Positions 177 through 58,303 of a stretch of DNA of 64,000 nt are shown here, piece after piece. Under the pieces are notes generated by a model. It did no database searches, had not been told where the DNA came from, and worked only from the letters and a program-made list of their open reading frames with translations. Position numbers and translations under genes: made by a program. The first letter of the stretch is position 1. The number at the start of each line of letters is the position of its first letter. The DNA comes from Minisyncoccota bacterium (GTDB lineage: Bacteria; Patescibacteriota; Minisyncoccia; Phycocordibacterales; UBA9973), in NCBI GenBank assembly GCA_031972855.1, contig DALYDY010000002.1, positions 99,263-163,262 of the forward strand. The letters run 5' to 3'.

Positions 177-1229
177 ATGTCAAACGCACTAAAAATCCTA
201 ATCCCACTCGTAAGTTCATTCTTCATAGGTTTTATTATTACTCCAATACTTACAAAATATTTTTATAAATTTAGACTTTGGAAAAGAAGTTCTCGTTCTA
301 ACGCATCTGTTTCAAAAGAATTCCAAGATGTTCACAATGAAAAAGAAGAGCTGAAGACTCCACGTGTTGGAGGTATTATCATATGGCTTTCTGTTTTGAT
401 AACAATACTTCTCATTGCTCTTATAGAACAGATATTTCCTAGTGAAATAACAAGTAAATTAAATTTTCTAAGTCGTAGTCAGACTCTTATACCTCTTGGG
501 ACACTGGTGTTGGGAGGACTTCTTGGGTTGTTTGATGATCTTGCTCAAGTTTTCGCATCCAATTCTTATGGTGCAGACGCACTTTCAAATCGTAGAGTAA
601 AGATTGCAATCATAATAGCAATGAGTCTTCTTATTGGTATCTGGTTTGTATTGAAGCTTGATCAAGCAAGTATTTTTGTACCATTTATTGGAGATGTTCC
701 TCTTGGATTAATGTTTATACCATTCTTCATACTTGTAACCCTCGCTGTGTTTTCTTCAAGTATTATAGACGGGATGGATGGTCTTTCTGGAGGTGTTCTT
801 CTACCTATTTTTGCATCATATACACTCATAGCCTATACAAACAACCAGATAGACCTCGCGGCTTTCTCGTCTGTCGTTACTGGATCTATTCTTGTATTTC
901 TTTGGTTTAATATTCCACCAGCAAGATTTTATATGGGAGAAACAGGAATGCTCGGCCTCACACTTCTTTTGTCTGTTATAGCATTTCTTACTGACGCTGT
1001 TTTTGTACTTCCAATCATAGCTCTGCCTCTAGTCGCAACAAGTCTTTCAGCTATCTTGCAAATCTATTCATACAAATATCGCAACAAAAAAAGAATTTTC
1101 TTAGTCGCTCCACTTCATCATCATTTCGAAGCAAAAGGATGGTCTCGCGCAAAAGTTACAATGAGATATTGGATAGTGTCTATAGCTTGCTCTGCTTTTG
1201 GAACAATTATTTATTTGATGACTAAATAA
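177..1229 (+). CDS. mraY: phospho-N-acetylmuramoyl-pentapeptide transferase
   Basis: Polytopic membrane protein with GDVPLG, GMDGLSGG and MGETGMLGL motifs typical of MraY/GT4; followed by ftsW 3 nt downstream. Confidence 0.85.
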   Translation: MSNALKILIPLVSSFFIGFIITPILTKYFYKFRLWKRSSRSNASVSKEFQDVHNEKEELKTPRVGGIIIWLSVLITILLIALIEQIFPSEITSKLNFLSRSQTLIPLGTLVLGGLLGLFDDLAQVFASNSYGADALSNRRVKIAIIIAMSLLIGIWFVLKLDQASIFVPFIGDVPLGLMFIPFFILVTLAVFSSSIIDGMDGLSGGVLLPIFASYTLIAYTNNQIDLAAFSSVVTGSILVFLWFNIPPARFYMGETGMLGLTLLLSVIAFLTDAVFVLPIIALPLVATSLSAILQIYSYKYRNKKRIFLVAPLHHHFEAKGWSRAKVTMRYWIVSIACSAFGTIIYLMTK

Positions 1230-5970: not shown

Positions 5971-7107
5971 ATGGAAAAGAAGTCTTCAAATTCAAATTTA
6001 CACAAAGCAAACAAAAATAAAAAAGATGAGTTTTATACTCAACTTTTTGATATTGAAAAAGAATTAAAACATTATAAAGAACAATTTAAAGGTAAAGTTG
6101 TGTATTGTAATTGTGACGACCCATTTGAAAGTAATTTCTTTAAATATTTCGCTTCAAATTTTAATGCATTAGGATTAAAAAGATTGATTGCTACAAGTTA
6201 CAAACCTTCACCAATTGCAAATACCCAGCTCGGACTTTTTGGAGATAATAAAACACTTACTACAGCAAAAGGTCGTCCAAAAAATAATGCTAATAAATTT
6301 ATTATAAATGAAGTTCATGATATAGACAGTGATGGAGCTTTTGATTTACGTGATATTGCAGAACAACTCAAAGCAAATAAAAATAACGAATGGTCACCAA
6401 TGGAAAATGATGGTGATTTTAGAAGTGATGAAAGTATTGAGCTTTTAAAACAGGCAGATATTGTAGTAACAAATCCACCCTTTTCATTGTTTAGGCAGTA
6501 TATTGCACAGCTCGTAGAATACAATAAAAAATTTCTAGTTATCGGAAGTTTAAATGCTGTTAAATATAATTCAATTTTCAAATTAATCAAGAATAATCAA
6601 TGTTGGTTAGGTTATAATAATGGTGCAAAAACTTATTTAGTTCCAAACAATTACGAACAAAAAAATATATTTGTAGGTGAAGATGGAAAAAAATATGCAA
6701 AAATGGGTAACACCTGTTGGTTTACAAATCTTGATATTCAAAAGCGTCATGAATCAATAGTCTTGTATAAAAAATATACAACAGAAGAATATTTTAAATA
6801 TGATAATTATGACGCTATAGAAATTGGAGAACAAAAGAAAAATGGTAATTGGGAAGGTCGAATAGATATTATACCAATGGACTATGAGGGTGTAATGGGA
6901 GTACCTATTACTTTTATTGATAAATATAATCCTGAGCAGTTTGAAGCTTTAGGAGTTTTTGATGATAAAAGAGAAGAGGATGATGCTTTTATACAAGGAG
7001 TACCAACTTATGTTGACGAACAACACAAAAGATATGTTGGTCCTGTTTTAAAAGGAAAAGCTCTTTATACGCGTGTTTTAATTAAAAATAAAAAACCACA
7101 GAAATAA
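5971..7107 (+). CDS. gamma-class N6-adenine DNA methyltransferase (orphan or system-associated)
   Basis: Motif X-like DEFYTQ, motif I-like VYCNCDDPF and motif IV NPPF (VVTNPPFS); starts 4 nt after the gltX stop; very AT-rich. Confidence 0.65.
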   Translation: MEKKSSNSNLHKANKNKKDEFYTQLFDIEKELKHYKEQFKGKVVYCNCDDPFESNFFKYFASNFNALGLKRLIATSYKPSPIANTQLGLFGDNKTLTTAKGRPKNNANKFIINEVHDIDSDGAFDLRDIAEQLKANKNNEWSPMENDGDFRSDESIELLKQADIVVTNPPFSLFRQYIAQLVEYNKKFLVIGSLNAVKYNSIFKLIKNNQCWLGYNNGAKTYLVPNNYEQKNIFVGEDGKKYAKMGNTCWFTNLDIQKRHESIVLYKKYTTEEYFKYDNYDAIEIGEQKKNGNWEGRIDIIPMDYEGVMGVPITFIDKYNPEQFEALGVFDDKREEDDAFIQGVPTYVDEQHKRYVGPVLKGKALYTRVLIKNKKPQK

Positions 7108-7109
7108 AT

Positions 7110-7144
7110 ATGATATATCTTATAATTTATACATGATATATCTT
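7110..7144 (+). promoter_or_regulatory. direct repeat ATGATATATCTT x2 (7110-7121 and 7133-7144) with a TATAAT between, in the 98-bp gap upstream of fic
   Basis: Two identical 12-mers spaced 23 bp apart inside the only intergenic gap of the MTase-Fic-DUF262/HNH-HNH block. Confidence 0.3.
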
Positions 7145-7205
7145 TATATTTTTACTTAAAGTCATAAACCTTGTTTTATAAGTATATTTATTATAATATT
7201 GATAC

Positions 7206-8369
7206 ATGTTAGAAAACCTAAAAGATATATCTCAAATAGAATTAAAAGTTCCAAAACCTGAGTGGAGTAGCGATTTAGCTAATACTATTATAGAGTTAGA
7301 AGCTTTAAGAAAGAGAGAACTTAGAGGGTCTACCCCGATTCATATTTTTTTTGAAATTAAAAATGTATTTCAATTTTTAGAAAGTATTGGTTCTGCTAGA
7401 ATTGAAGGAAATCATACAACTATTTCAGAGTTTGTAGAAAAAATTATTGAGGAAGCAAACCCTAAAAAAGATGAGAGTTTAGCAGAAATATTAAACATTA
7501 ACAAAGCTATTAGTTTTATTAATGATTTTATGTCTAAAGATAAAACCATAGACAAAGCTTTATTATTAGAAATTCATAAAATTGTAGTAAGTGGGTTAAA
7601 TAGAGAAGGTGCTAAAATCATTGGTGATTACAGAAAAGAAAATGTAAACATATCAAACGCTATTGTAAAACCTCCAGAATTTATAAAAGTTAATGAATAC
7701 ATGGATAATTTATTTAATTTTATAAATGAGGTGAATGACAGAGAAAATCATTTACTTAAAGTTGCAATTGCTCATCATTATTTTACAGTAATACACCCTT
7801 TTGATAACGGTAATGGGAGGGTTGTTCGTTTGCTAACTTTCTTAATGTTAATTAAGTATGGTTTTAATATAAAAAATGGAAATATTTTAAATCCAACAGC
7901 AATATTCTGTAATGATAGAAATATTTACTATAAAATGCTATCGGAAGCAGATAATGGAAATATAGAAAATTGGTGTGTATATGTATTATCTGGACTAAAA
8001 GAAGAGATAGATAAAATTGATAGAATAAGTAATATTAAATATATTGTCAAAATTTTTAGTGATGTATTAGAGGATGCTTTAAATAAAAAATATATTGATG
8101 AGTATTTCTATAATGTATTATCGTTAATTATTAAAAATAAAGACATGATTATTTCAGCTGGAGATCTTTCAGTTTTAGATAATATGGACTCTAATCTAAA
8201 ACGATCAAGGATGATTAAAAAACTAAAAGATGCAAAAATGATAAAATCTTTAGGTGGTGAAAAAAGTAGAACATATACTATTACTTTTAATGAAAACTTC
8301 TTACTTAGAAGTTTGATAAAAGTTTTAATAAATGAAAAATTTATACCAGAATCATTGAATACAAAATAA
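7206..8369 (+). CDS. fic: Fic/Doc family protein (AMPylase-type) with Fic_N domain
   Basis: Fic_N motif SARIEGNHTTISEF and canonical Fic active site HPFDNGNGRVVRLL. Confidence 0.85.
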   Translation: MLENLKDISQIELKVPKPEWSSDLANTIIELEALRKRELRGSTPIHIFFEIKNVFQFLESIGSARIEGNHTTISEFVEKIIEEANPKKDESLAEILNINKAISFINDFMSKDKTIDKALLLEIHKIVVSGLNREGAKIIGDYRKENVNISNAIVKPPEFIKVNEYMDNLFNFINEVNDRENHLLKVAIAHHYFTVIHPFDNGNGRVVRLLTFLMLIKYGFNIKNGNILNPTAIFCNDRNIYYKMLSEADNGNIENWCVYVLSGLKEEIDKIDRISNIKYIVKIFSDVLEDALNKKYIDEYFYNVLSLIIKNKDMIISAGDLSVLDNMDSNLKRSRMIKKLKDAKMIKSLGGEKSRTYTITFNENFLLRSLIKVLINEKFIPESLNTK

Positions 8370-8370
8370 A

Positions 8371-9474
8371 ATGAAGATAGATTTACATAAAATAAAAATA
8401 GCTGAAGTTGTAAAAGACTACAAAGACAGTGCTGAGGAAGGTGTTACTGCTTTTGGCGGAAAACTCGATATTCGTCCAAAATATCAAAGAGAATTCGTGT
8501 ACGACACAAAACATCGTGACGAAGTAATTAAAACCGTTAAAAAAGATTTTCCACTCAATGTAATGTATTGGGTTAAAAAAGAAGATGAAAACTTTGAAGT
8601 ACTTGATGGACAACAAAGAACTATTAGTATTGCTCAATTTGTAAATGGAGATTTTTCTATTGATTTTAACGGGAGAATTGCAATGTTCCACAATCTAACA
8701 AAAGAAGAACAAGATCAAATTCTAAATTATGAATTGATGATTTATCACTGTGAAGGACAAGAAAAAGAAAAACTTGACTGGTTCAAGATTATTAATATTG
8801 CAGGAATGGAACTAACACAACAAGAATTAAAAAACGCAGTATATACTGGCTCTTGGCTTTCTGACGCAAAACTCAAATTTAGTAAAACAAATTGTGCTGC
8901 ATATTTACTTGCAAATGATGGCGGACAATTAGTAACAGGATCACCAATCCGTCAGGACTATTTAGAAACTGCATTAACTTGGATAAATAATGAAGATATT
9001 GAAGGTTATATGGCAAAGCATCAGCACGATACAAACGCAGATGAATTATGGCAGTATTTCCAAAATGTAATTCATTGGGCAAGAGAAGTTTTTCCAAATT
9101 ACAGAAAAGAAATGGCGAGTGTAAATTGGGGTGAATTATATAATGAATTTAATAAAAAGAAATTTGATTCATTAAAACTTGAGGAAGAAATTAAAAAATT
9201 AATGCAAGACGAAGATGTAACTAAAAAATCTGGTATTTACCCATATGTTTTAACTCGCAAAGATAGATATCTTTCTATTCGTGCATTTACTCCAAATATG
9301 AAGCGCGAAGCATACGAAAGACAAAATGGTATTTGTTCATCATGTAAAAAAGAATTTTCTATTGGAAATATGGAGGCAGATCATATTGACCCTTGGCACG
9401 AAGGTGGTAAGACTACAACAGAAAATTGTCAGATGTTGTGTAAAGAATGTAATAGAAGAAAGTCAGGAAAATAA
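8371..9474 (+). CDS. DUF262 (ParB/Srx-like NTPase) fused to an HNH nuclease; GmrSD-like type IV restriction architecture
   Basis: N-terminal DUF262 signature LDGQQRTISI; C-terminal HNH (CSSCKK…ADHIDPWHEGG…NCQMLCKECNRRK); start 2 nt after the fic stop. Confidence 0.75.
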   Translation: MKIDLHKIKIAEVVKDYKDSAEEGVTAFGGKLDIRPKYQREFVYDTKHRDEVIKTVKKDFPLNVMYWVKKEDENFEVLDGQQRTISIAQFVNGDFSIDFNGRIAMFHNLTKEEQDQILNYELMIYHCEGQEKEKLDWFKIINIAGMELTQQELKNAVYTGSWLSDAKLKFSKTNCAAYLLANDGGQLVTGSPIRQDYLETALTWINNEDIEGYMAKHQHDTNADELWQYFQNVIHWAREVFPNYRKEMASVNWGELYNEFNKKKFDSLKLEEEIKKLMQDEDVTKKSGIYPYVLTRKDRYLSIRAFTPNMKREAYERQNGICSSCKKEFSIGNMEADHIDPWHEGGKTTTENCQMLCKECNRRKSGK

Positions 9475-54609: not shown

Positions 54610-55023
54610 TCAAAATGGATAGTCATCTTCGTTAAAAGAATGTGGGAATTCAAAATGTAGTTGTTGAGTTTTTTTAATAACAATCCTTTGTTTGAATTCT
54701 CTTGGAACTTTTTTAAATGACAAAGCCATTTTTACAGCTCCATGAAATCCAGTATCAAAGTATTTTTTATACAAATCAATAACACTTCCACTATAACCAC
54801 AACCATAACATTTATATTTAGATAAATTTTGAGAAAACCTGAGTGATGGAGTTTTTTCTTTATGAAAAAAGCATTTGATTGTATAGTCTCCACTTTTTCT
54901 TAATTTTGGTAAAAAAAGTTTATCTTGAGTTTGTATAAAATGATATGCAGCAAGCAAAAGAAAATAGTCAGGATCTAATACGATCCTATCAACAAGGTCT
55001 GGGTCGTATTTGTGTTTTTTCAT
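54610..55023 (-). CDS. standalone CHC2-type (DnaG/primase-like) zinc-finger protein
   Basis: CFFHKEKTPSLRF…YKCYGCGYSGSVIDLY matches the primase CHC2 zinc-binding motif; no TOPRIM domain. Confidence 0.55.
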   Translation of the reverse strand: MKKHKYDPDLVDRIVLDPDYFLLLAAYHFIQTQDKLFLPKLRKSGDYTIKCFFHKEKTPSLRFSQNLSKYKCYGCGYSGSVIDLYKKYFDTGFHGAVKMALSFKKVPREFKQRIVIKKTQQLHFEFPHSFNEDDYPF

Positions 55024-55095: not shown

Positions 55096-55836
55096 TTACT
55101 TTTTAATACTTTCAAAATCTAAAATGTTTTTTGTAATACCCAAACCACGAGCAATTTCTAAAACATTCTCTGCTCCACCAACATATTGAGAGGTTTTTTC
55201 TACTTCTCTTTTAAATTTTTCTTCTGTGATGTCTTTAGCTTTTTCAAGGATATACTCAACATCATTATCTAACAATAATTGATACCCTTGAGACACAAGG
55301 CGTATCATCTTGTATAAATTTGCAGGATAAGATTTTATGATTTTCAGTTTTTTATTTTTAATGTCTAAAACAGCATCTTCAATAGAAGAAACTTTATTTA
55401 ACCAATTAATTGAGTCGATTTCTTTAATGTCTAAGGCTACGGCTCCAATAGTAAAATCACTTATTCTTTCTAGAGTAGATTCTATACTCTCAGAAGAAGA
55501 AAATATTTTGCAATCGAGATATAAAAAGTCATTATATCTATCTACAGGATTCAGAATCCTAGCTTTCTTGAGTACTTTTGATTTTTCTGAGTCTTTACTT
55601 CCGTAAACAAATCCTGCTTTTAATAAGTTTTGGGCAAATAACTCACCATCTCCGATAACAATACAATCAAAATCTCGTTGTTTTATTTTTTCCTTAAAAT
55701 AATTAAAATGAATAGCGTTTCGAATAGTGCCCCCAAATAAATATACTTTTGTATTTTCAGGAATCAGTTCTTTAATCTCATTTAGAATTATTCTATTAGA
55801 AAGATTGTGAAGAAATATAGGTAAGGCATTTTCCAT
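55096..55836 (-). CDS. Pol-beta-superfamily nucleotidyltransferase (CCA-adding / poly(A) polymerase head-domain-like)
   Basis: LFGGTIRNAI…DFDCIVIG (GGxxR…DxD). Confidence 0.5.
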   Translation of the reverse strand: MENALPIFLHNLSNRIILNEIKELIPENTKVYLFGGTIRNAIHFNYFKEKIKQRDFDCIVIGDGELFAQNLLKAGFVYGSKDSEKSKVLKKARILNPVDRYNDFLYLDCKIFSSSESIESTLERISDFTIGAVALDIKEIDSINWLNKVSSIEDAVLDIKNKKLKIIKSYPANLYKMIRLVSQGYQLLLDNDVEYILEKAKDITEEKFKREVEKTSQYVGGAENVLEIARGLGITKNILDFESIKK

Positions 55837-55940: not shown

Positions 55941-56153
55941 GTACAGGACTCGATCCTTACAGGATCAGTACAGATTTTTCATTTTTGAAAACAAATACAT
56001 TTTCAAAAATAAGGAACAATCTTTTCTCGTCCTGACACAAGCCAAGCAGTTGGCTTGTTTACGGTCCACATTTGCTAAAGCAAATTTCTATTGCTTTCAA
56101 AAAGCAATAGAAAACAAAAAATCCATCAGGAGATGGATTTTTTGTTTGTGGAC
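55941..56153. repeat. copy 1 of a ~215-bp tRNA-Ala-linked structured repeat
   Basis: Aligns along its length with 58018-58236; begins with gtacaggactc (a tRNA-Ala 3'-end fragment) and ends with a hairpin plus T-run terminator and gtggac. Confidence 0.75.
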
Positions 56154-56286
56154 TACCCTTTTAAATTTTCAAACAACTCACAAGAGCAAAAAAATAAACA
56201 ATGTTCTAGGGTTAAAAATGACTTTAAAATTCACTTACATAAGTTTAATGGGTCAATAGAAGGAGTAGAAATCTGAAAGCATATTA

Positions 56287-56883
56287 TTACACATCACCTT
56301 CAATTTCTTGACCAACAACATACTGACAACCATTCTCTCCAACCTTGGCGCCATGCTCAATTCCTACCGGAACATCGAACCTCTCACCAGTAGAAACGAC
56401 CTTCTGAATACCTCCAGAAAAGCTCACAGAGCCCTCAATTACATAAAAAGATACTTTGCCTTGATGAGTATGATTTTCATACACTGTACCCGGTTTATCG
56501 TGCCATTCGTAGACTATCGGGAATCCTTCGGTCTCAAGTATTTTTTTGAGAAAGTTTATTTTCAAAATGATGCATCTTGGGTTTTCTTCAATAGTATTCA
56601 CGATTTCCTTGTTTGAGAAGATTTCATTCGCTGGATATTGAGATTTTGTGAAATCGTGTTCAATATCGTCTAATAGGTTCCAGTAATGTGAGATATTATT
56701 ACTGTCTTTTGCTTTTATAATTTTTCCACCCAAAAACTCTTGAAAGAGCTTTACTGTAACAAAACATTGCCCCTTTGCAGGATTATTCTGTGACCAATCT
56801 TTTTGCCATGGTTCATAGCAAGTTTCTTTTGTCCAAACAAGAGGAACTATTGTCTCGAAATCACGTAGCGATATTTTATTCAT
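56287..56883 (-). CDS. cupin-domain protein
   Basis: C-terminal cupin barrel (HTHQGKVSFYVIEGSVSF…GERFDVPVGIEH). Confidence 0.55.
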   Translation of the reverse strand: MNKISLRDFETIVPLVWTKETCYEPWQKDWSQNNPAKGQCFVTVKLFQEFLGGKIIKAKDSNNISHYWNLLDDIEHDFTKSQYPANEIFSNKEIVNTIEENPRCIILKINFLKKILETEGFPIVYEWHDKPGTVYENHTHQGKVSFYVIEGSVSFSGGIQKVVSTGERFDVPVGIEHGAKVGENGCQYVVGQEIEGDV

Positions 56884-57202
56884 AATCTTCAATCGGATAA
56901 ATATCAAAAGCTATCTCTTCATACGGATGTACTTTCTTCACTACCTCAATTACTTCCTTGAGAATACTTCTTGGCAACACAACCTCAATTTTTTCTTCTT
57001 CAACAGACTCATATTTCATCGCTTCTCCGATTGAGGGATTTGAATTTTCATTTCCACAATAGCGACCTGTGCCTTTTGTTGAGAATGAACAAAAATCGTA
57101 GTTTCCTATCTTTCCTGCTCCTGCATTGCCAAGAGTCTCGCGAATAATATCTGCGTGCGAGAGAGGTGTGAATATAACAAGTTTTATATTTGATGACTGC
57201 AT
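56876..57202 (-). CDS. YqfO/NIF3 insert-domain-like small protein
   Basis: KLVIFTPLSHADIIRETLGNAGAGKIGNYDFCSF…HPYEEIAFDIYPIE closely resembles the NIF3/YqfO C-terminal insert domain. Confidence 0.55.
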   Translation of the reverse strand: MQSSNIKLVIFTPLSHADIIRETLGNAGAGKIGNYDFCSFSTKGTGRYCGNENSNPSIGEAMKYESVEEEKIEVVLPRSILKEVIEVVKKVHPYEEIAFDIYPIEDYE

Positions 57203-57206
57203 ATTT

Positions 57207-57794
57207 CTATTTCAAAAAATTATTTGGGAATTCTCCGAGCATTTCTTTTGCTCTAAGGTAGTGACATTGAAATGCTTTTTGTACTTCTGGTAATACAATC
57301 TTTCTATTCCAATCCTTTTCTATTTTCTTTTTAAGATACTCTTGGGTAGTGGTAAAATCATCACCATTTTCATTGAAATAACTCGGATAAAATACACCAG
57401 TGAAATGTGACGCTCCATCCGCAGATGAAACAATTTGAGTCTCGATTGGAGTTGTGCGAATATCAATTTCATTTTTCTTTTCCATTAGTTGCCAATATTC
57501 AATAACTTTATCTACGAATTCTTGAGAGAAACCACATTCAAGCATCACTTTCGGTCCTTCAGATAAAGTAACAACTCTTTCGTTCTCTTCATTTATCGGC
57601 TTACCGAAATCATGGAACCACACAAGAGCTTGTACAATATCTCTATCCGCTTCTGTGTAAATATCACAAAGTTCCATTGCGATTTTCTCTACAATTTTAA
57701 GATGATACTCAACCATCCATTCGTGATAAGTAAAATCCTTTCTTGAGAAATTTTCTATCACGATATTCTTAAATTTTGTGAGATTTTCTTGCAT
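57207..57794 (-). CDS. HD-domain phosphohydrolase
   Basis: H…HD motif (ALVWFHDFGK) with downstream D. Confidence 0.6.
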   Translation of the reverse strand: MQENLTKFKNIVIENFSRKDFTYHEWMVEYHLKIVEKIAMELCDIYTEADRDIVQALVWFHDFGKPINEENERVVTLSEGPKVMLECGFSQEFVDKVIEYWQLMEKKNEIDIRTTPIETQIVSSADGASHFTGVFYPSYFNENGDDFTTTQEYLKKKIEKDWNRKIVLPEVQKAFQCHYLRAKEMLGEFPNNFLK

Positions 57795-58017
57795 GTAATT
57801 ATTTGATTATTTTAATAAGTTTTGGAAACCACACTGAATCTCTTCTACCCCTTGTTCAGTCATTTTTTTCATATCTCAAATAATACACCTATAAATAACA
57901 GATTGAAAGAGTTCTAATTCAAATAAGGATTAGTATATATGGGAAATAGTTTTGGAACCCCAAAAATATCTATATTTTAAAAAGTAAAATCCGCATTATA
58001 CATGCGGAGTCTACTAG

Positions 58018-58236
58018 GGTGGACCGTACAGGACTCTTTCCTTACAGGAACAGTATACCTTTTCGATGAATTTAGATAAACTCAAAATTCATAACGAAAA
58101 ACTTTTCTCGTCCTGACACAAGTGAAGCAGTTCACTTGCTTACGGTCCACATTTGCTAAAGCAAATTTCTGTTACTTTCAAAAAAGTAACAGAAAACAAA
58201 AAATCCATCAGGAGATGGATTTTTTGTTTGTGGACC
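58018..58236. repeat. copy 2 of the ~215-bp tRNA-Ala-linked structured repeat
   Basis: Starts with ggtggaccgtacaggactc, a duplicate of the tRNA-Ala 3' end; ends abutting and overlapping the genuine tRNA-Ala 3' end. Confidence 0.75.
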
Positions 58237-58303
58237 GTACAGGACTCGAACCTGCCACCCCATCATTGCAAATGATGTGCTCTACCAGATGAGCTAACGG
58301 CCC
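58231..58303 (-). tRNA. tRNA-Ala (anticodon TGC)
   Basis: Cloverleaf folded by hand: acceptor GGGCCGT/ACGGTCC, D-arm GCTC…GAGC, anticodon stem-loop CATCA-TTTGCAA-TGATG, T-arm GCAGG-TTCGAGT-CCTGT, discriminator A; no encoded CCA. Confidence 0.85.

Follow-up and report, generated by a model that had tools for sequence, protein, structure and literature searches.

The DNA analyzed here is a 64-kb stretch of a Minisyncoccota genome (contig DALYDY010000002.1), referred to below, at its full length, as the window. On its minus strand lies a gene for tRNA-Ala(TGC) (58303-58230), which was called by ARAGORN and matched the Rfam tRNA model with 62.6 bits; upstream of it, Ddl and UvrC are encoded in conserved synteny. 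The 3' side of the tRNA gene is occupied by two direct repeats, U2 and U1, which enclose three genes on the minus strand (56287-57794), and it is these repeats and their relatives in other genomes that form the subject of this text. The positions of the repeats and the contact between the second copy and the tRNA gene had been described in an initial annotation and were confirmed by sequence and by ARAGORN. Related loci, genomes and contigs that were fetched for comparison with the window are designated by L-numbers.

The repeat copy next to the tRNA gene spans positions 58019-58235 and abuts that gene. An 18-mer, GTGGACCGTACAGGACTC, representing the tRNA sequence from G57 in the T-loop to C74 in reverse complement, is found without mismatch at 58019-58036 and at 58230-58247, the latter, proximal copy being the last 18 nt of the tRNA gene itself (58247-58230). 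U2 (58019-58229, minus strand) is a 211-bp insertion consisting of a 193-bp element and, distally, an 18-bp repeat of the tRNA 3' end (58036-58019). Beyond its distal repeat lies a terminator hairpin, T1 (57990-58008, minus strand), which is the native terminator and directly follows the tRNA gene in a sister genome. U1 (55941-56153, minus strand) is the older copy. It starts with the last 11 bases of the 18-mer; its right end, ..GAGTCCTGTAC, copies only positions 57-67 of the tRNA. It is preceded by a degenerate remnant of a tRNA end, GTAGTCCAC (gtggactac; 56148-56156, minus strand), which has counterparts at three other loci (GTGGTCCAC in L243, GTAGTCCAC in L051, and GTAATCCAC in L070). The two units are ~86% identical overall, and the conserved blocks of the repeat occur twice in the window, where 0.00-0.02 occurrences are expected from shuffled sequences. 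Both copies fold far better than their shuffles, with z-scores of -9.3 to -12.5 for RNA folding and of -13.7 and -14.2 for DNA folding. The reported compensatory changes in the stems and the resequencing of the central hairpin between the copies proved to be real. Two pairs each are exchanged in the hairpins called c and e, and P2, the central hairpin, is fully resequenced and still perfect; the short hairpin P3 adds one changed pair, next to the loss of one terminal pair.

Read along the tRNA-sense strand, i.e., the minus strand of the window, a unit follows the tRNA end GGTCCAC with a terminator-like hairpin, which in U2 is located at 58194-58229 and consists of 16 bp with A-run and T-run flanks; the version in U1 (56147-56112) is identical. 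Hairpins e (58195-58166) and d (58166-58151), which together cover 58151-58195 in U2 and correspond to 56113-56085 and 56085-56070 in U1, come next; they were seen only in this genome and its sister. They are followed by the leader GTGGACCGTA (58141-58150 in U2, 56069-56060 in U1), in which the acceptor 3' strand of the tRNA (positions 65-74) appears as its reverse complement, by the trinucleotide AAG, and by hairpin c (58119-58138 in U2, 56057-56038 in U1). Hairpin c, with its 8-bp stem and the loop CUGC on the tRNA-sense strand, is the most conserved piece of the scaffold in the family. The unit continues with CAGGAC, which is the reverse complement of the 3' strand of the T-stem, and with a three-way junction, and it ends with a direct copy of the tRNA 3' end, GTCCTGTAC(GGTCCAC). 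The three-way-junction module (58026-58117 in U2, 56036-55941 in U1; all parts on the minus strand) matched the covariance model R1 described below with 88.6 bits (E 3e-18) in U2 and 86.5 bits in U1, and shows covariation. In U2, its P1 stem is formed by CAGGAC and GTCCTG; the positions from about 58059 to 58103 are taken up by P2, a hairpin that is long and variable, and 58038-58050 by P3, which has a stem of 4-5 bp and a GTA loop. The segments that join them, i.e., J12 (GAGAAAAG), J23 (GTATACTG), and J31 (AGA), are conserved in the modules.

Each unit contains, besides the direct copy, an inverted copy of the last 18-21 nt of the tRNA, which is interrupted by hairpin c. In U2, the two parts of this inverted copy are TACGGTCCAC at 58141-58150 and GTCCTG at 58110-58115. 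According to predicted folds, the inverted arm can pair in the integrated state either with the tRNA end or with the right-end copy; in the predicted single-stranded DNA fold of the integrated state, it is the tRNA end that pairs with the inverted arm. Pairing between the inverted and the direct arm was present in every fold computed, whether as RNA or as DNA.

A sister genome, L243 (GCA_964586445.1), was reached via the HD protein encoded between the two units. It is 98.4% identical to the window over the UvrC-Ddl-tRNA flank and 99.0% identical over U1 and the downstream sequences. Its tRNA junction reads ..GAGTCCTGTACGGTCCAC|CCTAGTAGACTCCGCATG.., which is the sequence that follows the distal repeat of U2 in the window. 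Thus, U2 is a clean indel of 211 bp, i.e., of 193 bp plus one 18-bp repeat. The comparison with empty sites in relatives, which had been proposed earlier, gave a precise answer: the sister genome and an independent Logan contig (L244), which represents the empty allele, both lack exactly U2 and show the junction tRNA..GGTCCAC|CCTAGTAG.., whereas the window and a second Logan contig (L001), representing the occupied allele, carry U2 between the 18-bp repeats. Samples with this organism are SRR6410602 for the allele with U2 and SRR12762275 for the one without it. Exact repeats of 18 bp bound U2 and restore the tRNA, as is expected of att repeats; the 193-bp interior contains no open reading frame (ORF) and, hence, no integrase. 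In look-ups with flanking proteins for further empty sites, the contigs were mostly found to end inside the repeats (L001, L121).

The sister genome retains U1, in which five changes, none of them compensated, disrupt pairs or conserved motifs, and U1 looks like a relic in that lineage. The modules of the two units are 77% identical to each other, whilst the module of U2 is 87% identical to that of L112 and the module of U1 88% identical to that of L081, two loci where the nucleotide similarity to the window is limited to the tRNA and the modules. Since the modules of U1 and U2 are closer to those of other genomes and the sister genome lacks U2, the two units were acquired independently at one hot spot. 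Their left halves, comprising the terminator, hairpins e and d, and the leader, are nearly identical, so that the copies are mosaics. U1 and U2 are separate insertions, not the two arms of one cassette.

Exact patterns specific for the units had no match in genome, metagenome and viral collections, among which the source genome is not included; relatives were reached with the tRNA 18-mer and with the pattern of hairpin c. A scan with the 18-mer, using one genome per species, yielded at least 119 loci, mostly from Patescibacteria (Paceibacterota, Nomura-, Moranii-, Lloyd-, and Saccharibacteria), and about one third of those listed display the same architecture, with the tRNA followed by a terminator hairpin and then by GTGGACCGTAAGCAAG... 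The order of parts throughout the family is tRNA, terminator hairpin, acceptor 3' strand in reverse complement, hairpin c with its CUGC loop, reverse complement of the T-stem and T-loop up to T54, three-way-junction module, and direct tRNA 3' copy. A covariance model built from 16 modules (A2, R1) matched ~50 modules in ~35 of the 119 tRNA-Ala loci listed. In an alignment of 36 modules, 91.5% of the cells are paired, and 118 cells are changed on both sides, as compared with 29 after column shuffles and 9-22 when the partners were slid; all five P3 pairs alternate among UA, CG, AU, and GC. The earlier claim that a structured unit is maintained by covariation, which was based on two copies, now rests on 36 homologous modules. 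The interiors of the units fall into at least two classes, which can be nested, and hairpin c was also found at other positions.

Most family members are single units without genes. Modules are found singly, in gene-less tandem arrays (L043, L049, L094), or with gene blocks between them (L051, L070, L040). Tandem modules or whole units without intervening genes were observed in L043, L049, L094, and L151, and L043 (4245-4449) contains one 122-nt unit more than its close relative L029 (4535-4616), with boundaries at CCTG|. In six metagenomic loci (L164, L167, L175, L188, L218, and L242), hairpin c caps a palindrome composed of the tRNA 3' end with its trailer and their complement (TCACAAAACACAC..GTGTTTTGTGA); this sub-type starts ~10 nt after the tRNA and has no terminator hairpin.

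The Rfam scan suggested for the unit revealed no matching family. Above the gathering threshold, only two tRNAs were found in the window, and at E ≤ 10 the unit gave only sub-threshold hits to the rimP and Phe leaders that were driven by the terminator. Likewise, 16 related loci and a class-2 unit yielded only tRNAs and two unrelated group I introns. The latter are both located in L155 (245-478, minus strand, and 714-1004, plus strand; 62 bits each). They sit in tRNA anticodon loops and were rejected as relatives of the unit; the second one splits the anticodon loop of a tRNA-Asp, and the mini-element behind that tRNA has arms matching another tRNA-Asp allele. A transfer-messenger RNA (tmRNA) or tRNA-like gene within the unit was dismissed, as ARAGORN called only tRNA-Ala and a tRNA-Ile in the window, and a CRISPR array, a retron, a T-box, signal recognition particle RNA, RNase P, a hammerhead ribozyme, and a group I intron, which had come into view through resemblance in sequence, were all dropped because Rfam support or the required gene (for reverse transcriptase or Cas) was lacking. 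In a search of the full-text literature, no account of such elements was found. Apparently, the family is an undescribed, gene-less and hairpin-rich insertion element of tRNA 3' ends, and its arms, fitted to the tRNA in front of it, hint that mobile DNA may select its target here in an unusual manner.

The scaffold is not confined to tRNA-Ala(TGC) but occurs behind tRNA genes for almost all amino acids in Patescibacteria. It also lies behind tRNA-Ala(CGC) and tRNA-Asn, and the leader and P1 are rewritten there to fit each of these tRNAs. A metagenome scan for hairpin c yielded at least 120 loci and placed it about one hairpin (40-50 nt) 3' of tRNAs, which, among the matches listed, are specific for Glu, Ser, His, Asp, Met, Val, Ala, Gln, Lys, Arg, Pro, Leu, Ile, Gly, Asn, Phe, and Thr. 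When the 9 nt before hairpin c were compared with the acceptor 3' strand, on average 6.7 of 9 positions fitted the cognate tRNA versus 5.1 of 9 for non-cognate tRNAs, and for the 12 nt after hairpin c, compared with the T-stem and T-loop, the values were 9.5 versus 7.5 of 12 (the control mean had a standard deviation of ~0.1 in either comparison). In the inverted arm, tRNA positions 54-74 are present as their reverse complement, with the end of the arm at T54 and a split at 65/66. The start of the direct copy lies at tRNA positions 56-60, and in 43 of 57 elements this copy extends to position 73/74. Wherever the distal copy deviates from the tRNA, the inverted arm sides with the tRNA in 68 cases and with the distal copy in eight. 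These loci show a conserved scaffold with flanking arms that are copied from the target tRNA, which is left intact and has its 3' end duplicated.

Several features bear on whether the element acts as DNA or as RNA. The stems are almost purely Watson-Crick paired; of about 1050-1080 pairs, 57 are G-U on one strand and 49 on the other, and this equal rarity gives no verdict on the folding strand. The loop of P3 is GTA in 32 of the 36 modules, closed by a C-G or a T-A pair, and GCGAAGC is located at the apex of P2 in five modules. In DNA, minihairpins with GNA triloops are very stable. The module is preceded, on the tRNA-sense strand, by two to three terminator-like hairpins that have T-runs, and no promoter-like sites were detected next to U2 on either strand or next to U1 on the plus strand. 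The leader complements the acceptor 3' strand exactly, with A3-U70 where the tRNA has G3-U70, and was, therefore, copied from DNA rather than from the 5' strand of the tRNA. Furthermore, the minus strand of the window is the G-rich strand, and the tRNA-sense strand, which bears the GNA loops, is therefore presumably the lagging-strand template, which is exposed at replication forks. Finally, U2 is dispensable in a relative with 98-99% identity. Together, a DNA-level element appears distinctly more probable than an RNA.

We consider U1 and U2 to be independent copies of a widespread, gene-less element of ~150-215 bp that resides at tRNA 3' ends in Patescibacteria and acts as folded DNA, and assign a probability of about 0.58 to this reading. 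Such an element would be non-autonomous and would function as single-stranded DNA, folding on the tRNA-sense strand when the latter is exposed, presumably as the lagging-strand template. Its inverted arm would pair either with the tRNA 3' end on the left or with the element's own right-end copy, and both junctions would thereby come to lie beside hairpin c. The arms might fold one strand into a copy of the double-stranded tRNA 3' end, or, equivalently, the feet of hairpin c might pair with the target strand. An enzyme acting in trans would recognize the conserved scaffold and cut and join at the junctions, either in a single-strand recombination like that at integron attC sites and in CTX phage, or in a reaction of the IS200/IS605 type with DNA-DNA pairing beside the hairpin. 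The three-gene block would then be separate, variable cargo at the same hot spot, which, like U1, predates the gain of U2 here or its loss in the sister genome. The initial proposal of an integrative unit without an integrase of its own holds in spirit, since U2 is a precise indel relative to the sister genome, but the part of it that took the repeats for att arms of a three-gene cassette does not.

A more far-reaching reading, which is possible though doubtful, is that of a programmable, DNA-guided mobile element. The feet of hairpin c would then pair with ~21 nt of the sense strand at the tRNA gene's 3' end and so choose the site, whilst the scaffold of hairpin c and three-way junction would recruit an enzyme encoded by the host or the element, and exchange of the arms would retarget the copies.

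A number of observations weigh against the favored reading of a folded-DNA insertion element. The U2 indel is equally explicable as a deletion between the 18-bp repeats, neither an excised circle nor a junction was observed, and tandem arrays consisting only of modules, as in L043 versus L029, can come from slippage. The proposed model leaves the re-matching of the arms to a new tRNA without explanation. No recombinase or transposase family was enriched in the 8-15-kb loci upon all-against-all clustering of 3127 ORFs; among all fetched loci, an IS200-like TnpA was found in L040 only. In phage, viral, and plasmid collections, no similar elements were found. Moreover, a structured RNA would account equally well for the conservation of the unpaired junction sequences, for the GAA/UGA tandem G.A internal loop that recurs in P2, and for the slight advantage in folding that the sense strand has in 27 of the 36 modules.

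The last three features, together with the strong covariation, form part of the case for a structured non-coding RNA (ncRNA), whose transcription would either run past the tRNA terminator on the tRNA-sense strand or proceed along the opposite strand and stop at the shared hairpin. The arms mirror the acceptor and T stems of the cognate tRNA, and the paired ends of such an RNA would imitate the top half formed by the acceptor and T-arm of the neighboring tRNA and could serve as a decoy, a sensor or a processing signal for tRNA-binding enzymes; in some members, the unit follows the tRNA after a gap of ~10 nt without any terminator. However, there is no Rfam match even at E ≤ 10 and no tmRNA or tRNA-like gene in the unit according to ARAGORN, two to three terminator-like hairpins separate the tRNA from the module, and the plus strand has no promoter-like site at the units. 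The similar rarity of G-U pairs on both strands is atypical of RNA families, and the leader was copied from DNA. Also, the decay of U1 in the sister genome is uncompensated, and a close relative does without U2. An ncRNA is, thus, an unlikely explanation, if not one to be dismissed lightly: the tRNA-linked structured element that was initially described stands, but its interpretation as an ncRNA is weakened by the G-U counts, the terminator-like hairpins and the lack of promoters.

Two further explanations connect the units with larger integrative elements. They could be the attP-arm leftovers of integrase islands at tRNA 3' ends that suffered internal deletions, either of large-serine-recombinase islands at tRNA-Ala or of tyrosine-integrase islands crossing over in the T-loop. 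Integration at tRNA genes has as its classical signature a block of identity that extends from the T-loop as far as the 3' end. In at least 27 loci, tRNA-Ala is abutted by a large serine recombinase gene, one such island (L246) bears the HD gene, another one (L103) is joined to the inverted arm of a module, and truncations of the type ..GTAC| as well as the GTAGTCCAC remnants fit a crossover near TAC|GG. Serine-recombinase islands may indeed explain these truncations and remnants, but not the scaffold with re-matched arms behind more than 17 tRNA species, for which a single sequence-specific integrase offers no explanation. Furthermore, att sites of the serine or lambda type need neither an inverted copy of the core 100 nt away nor covarying hairpins, the great majority of the copies have no integrase next to them, and in 13 of 16 elements hairpin c is separated from a full right-end copy by a narrowly distributed 55-121 nt; long, ORF-bearing versions, which would be the autonomous ones, were not found in the data. 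Island leftovers are therefore improbable. Still less probable is the reading of U1 and U2 as attL and attR of a single non-autonomous cassette with three genes, as had been suggested initially. It would account for two direct repeats that enclose 1.9 kb of accessory genes beside a tRNA, a layout shared by L051 and L070, and for the HD gene, which is clearly mobile cargo in other genomes. But the sister genome has the cargo with only U1 and an intact tRNA|T1 junction, U2 alone being the difference on the tRNA side. The modules of the supposed arms belong to different sub-lineages (77% identity to each other versus 87-88% to modules of other genomes), the cargo differs in content and diverges more (94.3% identity) than the flanks (98.4-99.0%), and most family members are single units without genes.

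The gene calls made initially for the cargo, i.e., an HD hydrolase, a NIF3-insert-like protein and a cupin, hold. On the minus strand, the first gene encodes an HD/HDIG protein of 195 aa (57207-57794), the second a stand-alone NIF3 insert domain (57202-56876; PDB 2gx8, E 1e-30), and the third a protein with YunG and cupin (56907-56287). In the cargo of the sister genome (5001-7854 in L243), the HD and NIF3-insert genes are 94.3% identical to those in the window, and the YunG/cupin gene is replaced by DUF4238, an ORF of 106 aa and an XRE helix-turn-helix gene. The divergence of the cargo and the swapped last gene suggest recombination or replacement inside the islet. The HD/HDIG protein has 477 homologs, many of them with 80-94% identity, in unrelated neighborhoods, among which the protein identity varies between 60 and 94%. 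These neighborhoods include the large-serine-recombinase island at tRNA-Ala in L246 and gene arrays behind tRNA-Gln and tRNA-Glu. Many of the contigs with this gene are 1.5-2.5 kb long and broken at repeats. From its distribution, the HD gene looks like highly mobile cargo.

Directly beyond U1, an ORF of 246 aa (55096-55836, minus strand) displays a nucleotidyltransferase-like motif, GGxxRN..DxD, and has no Pfam or NCBIfam hit. It adjoins a gene for a stand-alone DnaG-type CHC2 zinc ribbon of 137 aa (54610-55023, minus strand). The pair also follows U1 in the sister genome, and a link to the element was not seen at other loci. Elsewhere in the window (5971-9474, plus strand), a defense-type cluster encodes an EcoRI-like adenine methyltransferase, a Fic/DOC protein and a GmrSD-N and HNH endonuclease.

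As the initial annotation had stated, there is no integrase or transposase nearby; none was found among the 28 window ORFs scanned. The Y1 transposase of L040 (6068-6502, plus strand) is an IS200-like protein of 144 aa, encoded ~270 nt past decayed modules and beside an XRE regulator, and its flanks show no recognizable element ends. The large serine recombinase genes mentioned above encode proteins of 514-575 aa with a Resolvase domain, a Recombinase domain and a zinc ribbon; they abut the 3' end of tRNA-Ala(TGC), with the ORF running antisense into the tRNA, in L013, L019, L079, L085, L120, L246, and about 20 more loci. In L103, the end of such an island is fused to the inverted arm of a module without hairpin c. 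The large serine recombinase was rejected as the enzyme of the element, as it belongs to a separate type of tRNA-Ala island. Upon blastn of U2 against phages and plasmids, only chance matches were obtained, and viral matches to two scaffold patterns were coincidences in coding sequences.

If the reading as a folded-DNA element is correct, the Patescibacteria, which have small genomes, are poorly understood and mostly uncultured, would hold very abundant, tiny, gene-less elements that home to almost any tRNA gene by means of a copy and an inverted copy of their target. Recurrent assembly breaks and variable islets beside tRNA genes in these bacteria would then be explained. A target-matched site defined by structure would join the short list of single-strand DNA recombination systems, i.e., integron attC, CTX phage, and IS200/IS605, and an enzyme that recognizes a conserved hairpin scaffold and works where base pairing directs it would be of interest for programmable DNA insertion. 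If, instead, the units act as RNA, they would represent a new, widespread class of RNAs that mimic tRNA. The covariance model R1, together with the hairpin-c pattern, provides a means to map the family.

Among known systems, the attC sites of integrons resemble the unit in several respects. They too are set by one folded DNA strand rather than by sequence, have imperfectly conserved ends and a variable middle hairpin, encode no recombinase of their own, and can lie in the same orientation between unrelated accessory genes. In both cases, moreover, the homology boundary is located beside a G|TT step, which is G53|T54-T55 in the T-loop here and G|TTRRRY in integrons. However, the unit does not contain the R''/R' consensus (RYYYAAC/GTTRRRY), and no IntI gene or attI site is located nearby; its arms copy the adjacent tRNA and vary with it, most copies are gene-less, and side hairpin c splits one arm. 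Membership of the attC family was rejected, as the ends are derived from tRNA (..CAGGACTCGAA / GAGTCCTG..), GTTCGAG deviates from GTTRRRY at positions 4 and 7, and there is no RYYYAAC box. An integron was likewise dismissed: the genes upstream of the tRNA are those for Ddl and UvrC, and no recombinase gene was found among the scanned ORFs of the window or recurrently in the related loci.

Similarly, in attP(+) of CTX phage and in integrative mobile elements exploiting Xer (IMEX), a strand with two inverted copies of the target folds so as to imitate the target in its double-stranded form, and the enzyme is not encoded by the element itself. The same structural feature is present in the unit, where the inverted arm 54-74 and the direct arm pair in every fold and track the adjacent tRNA. 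The unit differs from these elements by targeting the 3' ends of many tRNA genes rather than dif, by its size of 150-215 nt rather than that of a phage genome, and by having no recognizable Xer-type site.

[quoted passage not shown] They are, however, scattered between genes and have fixed terminal inverted repeats, whereas the unit is tied to tRNA 3' ends and has arms copied from the target. A MITE proper was rejected because the inverted copy is internal, located after the terminator and split by hairpin c, and the repeat of 11-19 nt is the tRNA end. With tRNA islets, cis-mobilizable elements (CIMEs), and tycheposon-like arrays, the units have in common that direct repeats of a tRNA 3' end bound the inserts, that insertions accumulate successively, in tandem, at one tRNA, and that the cargo varies between close relatives. 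In those systems, however, the repeats are plain integrase att cores, whilst the unit consists of a conserved, structured scaffold of 150-215 nt with an extra, inverted core.

Elements of the IS200/IS605 family, palindrome-associated transposable elements (PATEs), and the repetitive extragenic palindromes with their tyrosine transposases (REP/RAYT) are strand-specific and rich in hairpins, like the unit, and a pairing guide beside a subterminal hairpin defines cleavage, as is presumed for the unit. In addition, these elements insert just 3' of their target, have non-autonomous copies that are mobilized in trans, and favor the lagging-strand template. In contrast to the 4 nt that pair at each of two similar hairpins in IS200/IS605, the pairing in the unit would involve ~21 nt on both feet of one hairpin; furthermore, the right end of the unit repeats the target, and a Y1 transposase gene is present only in L040. 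As compared with PATEs, the unit does have hairpins, but c and P3 are unlike each other, and among the fetched loci a Y1 TnpA again occurs only in L040. U2 is located directly 3' of the tRNA end yet ends with the same 18 nt, which fit a duplication as well as a portion of the element itself. A parallel to the DNA-guided reading is offered by the bridge RNAs of IS110, but here the guide would be DNA, and the element contains no gene. If that reading is true, the guide logic of IS200/IS605, which uses 4 nt, would be extended in the unit to a full-length guide.

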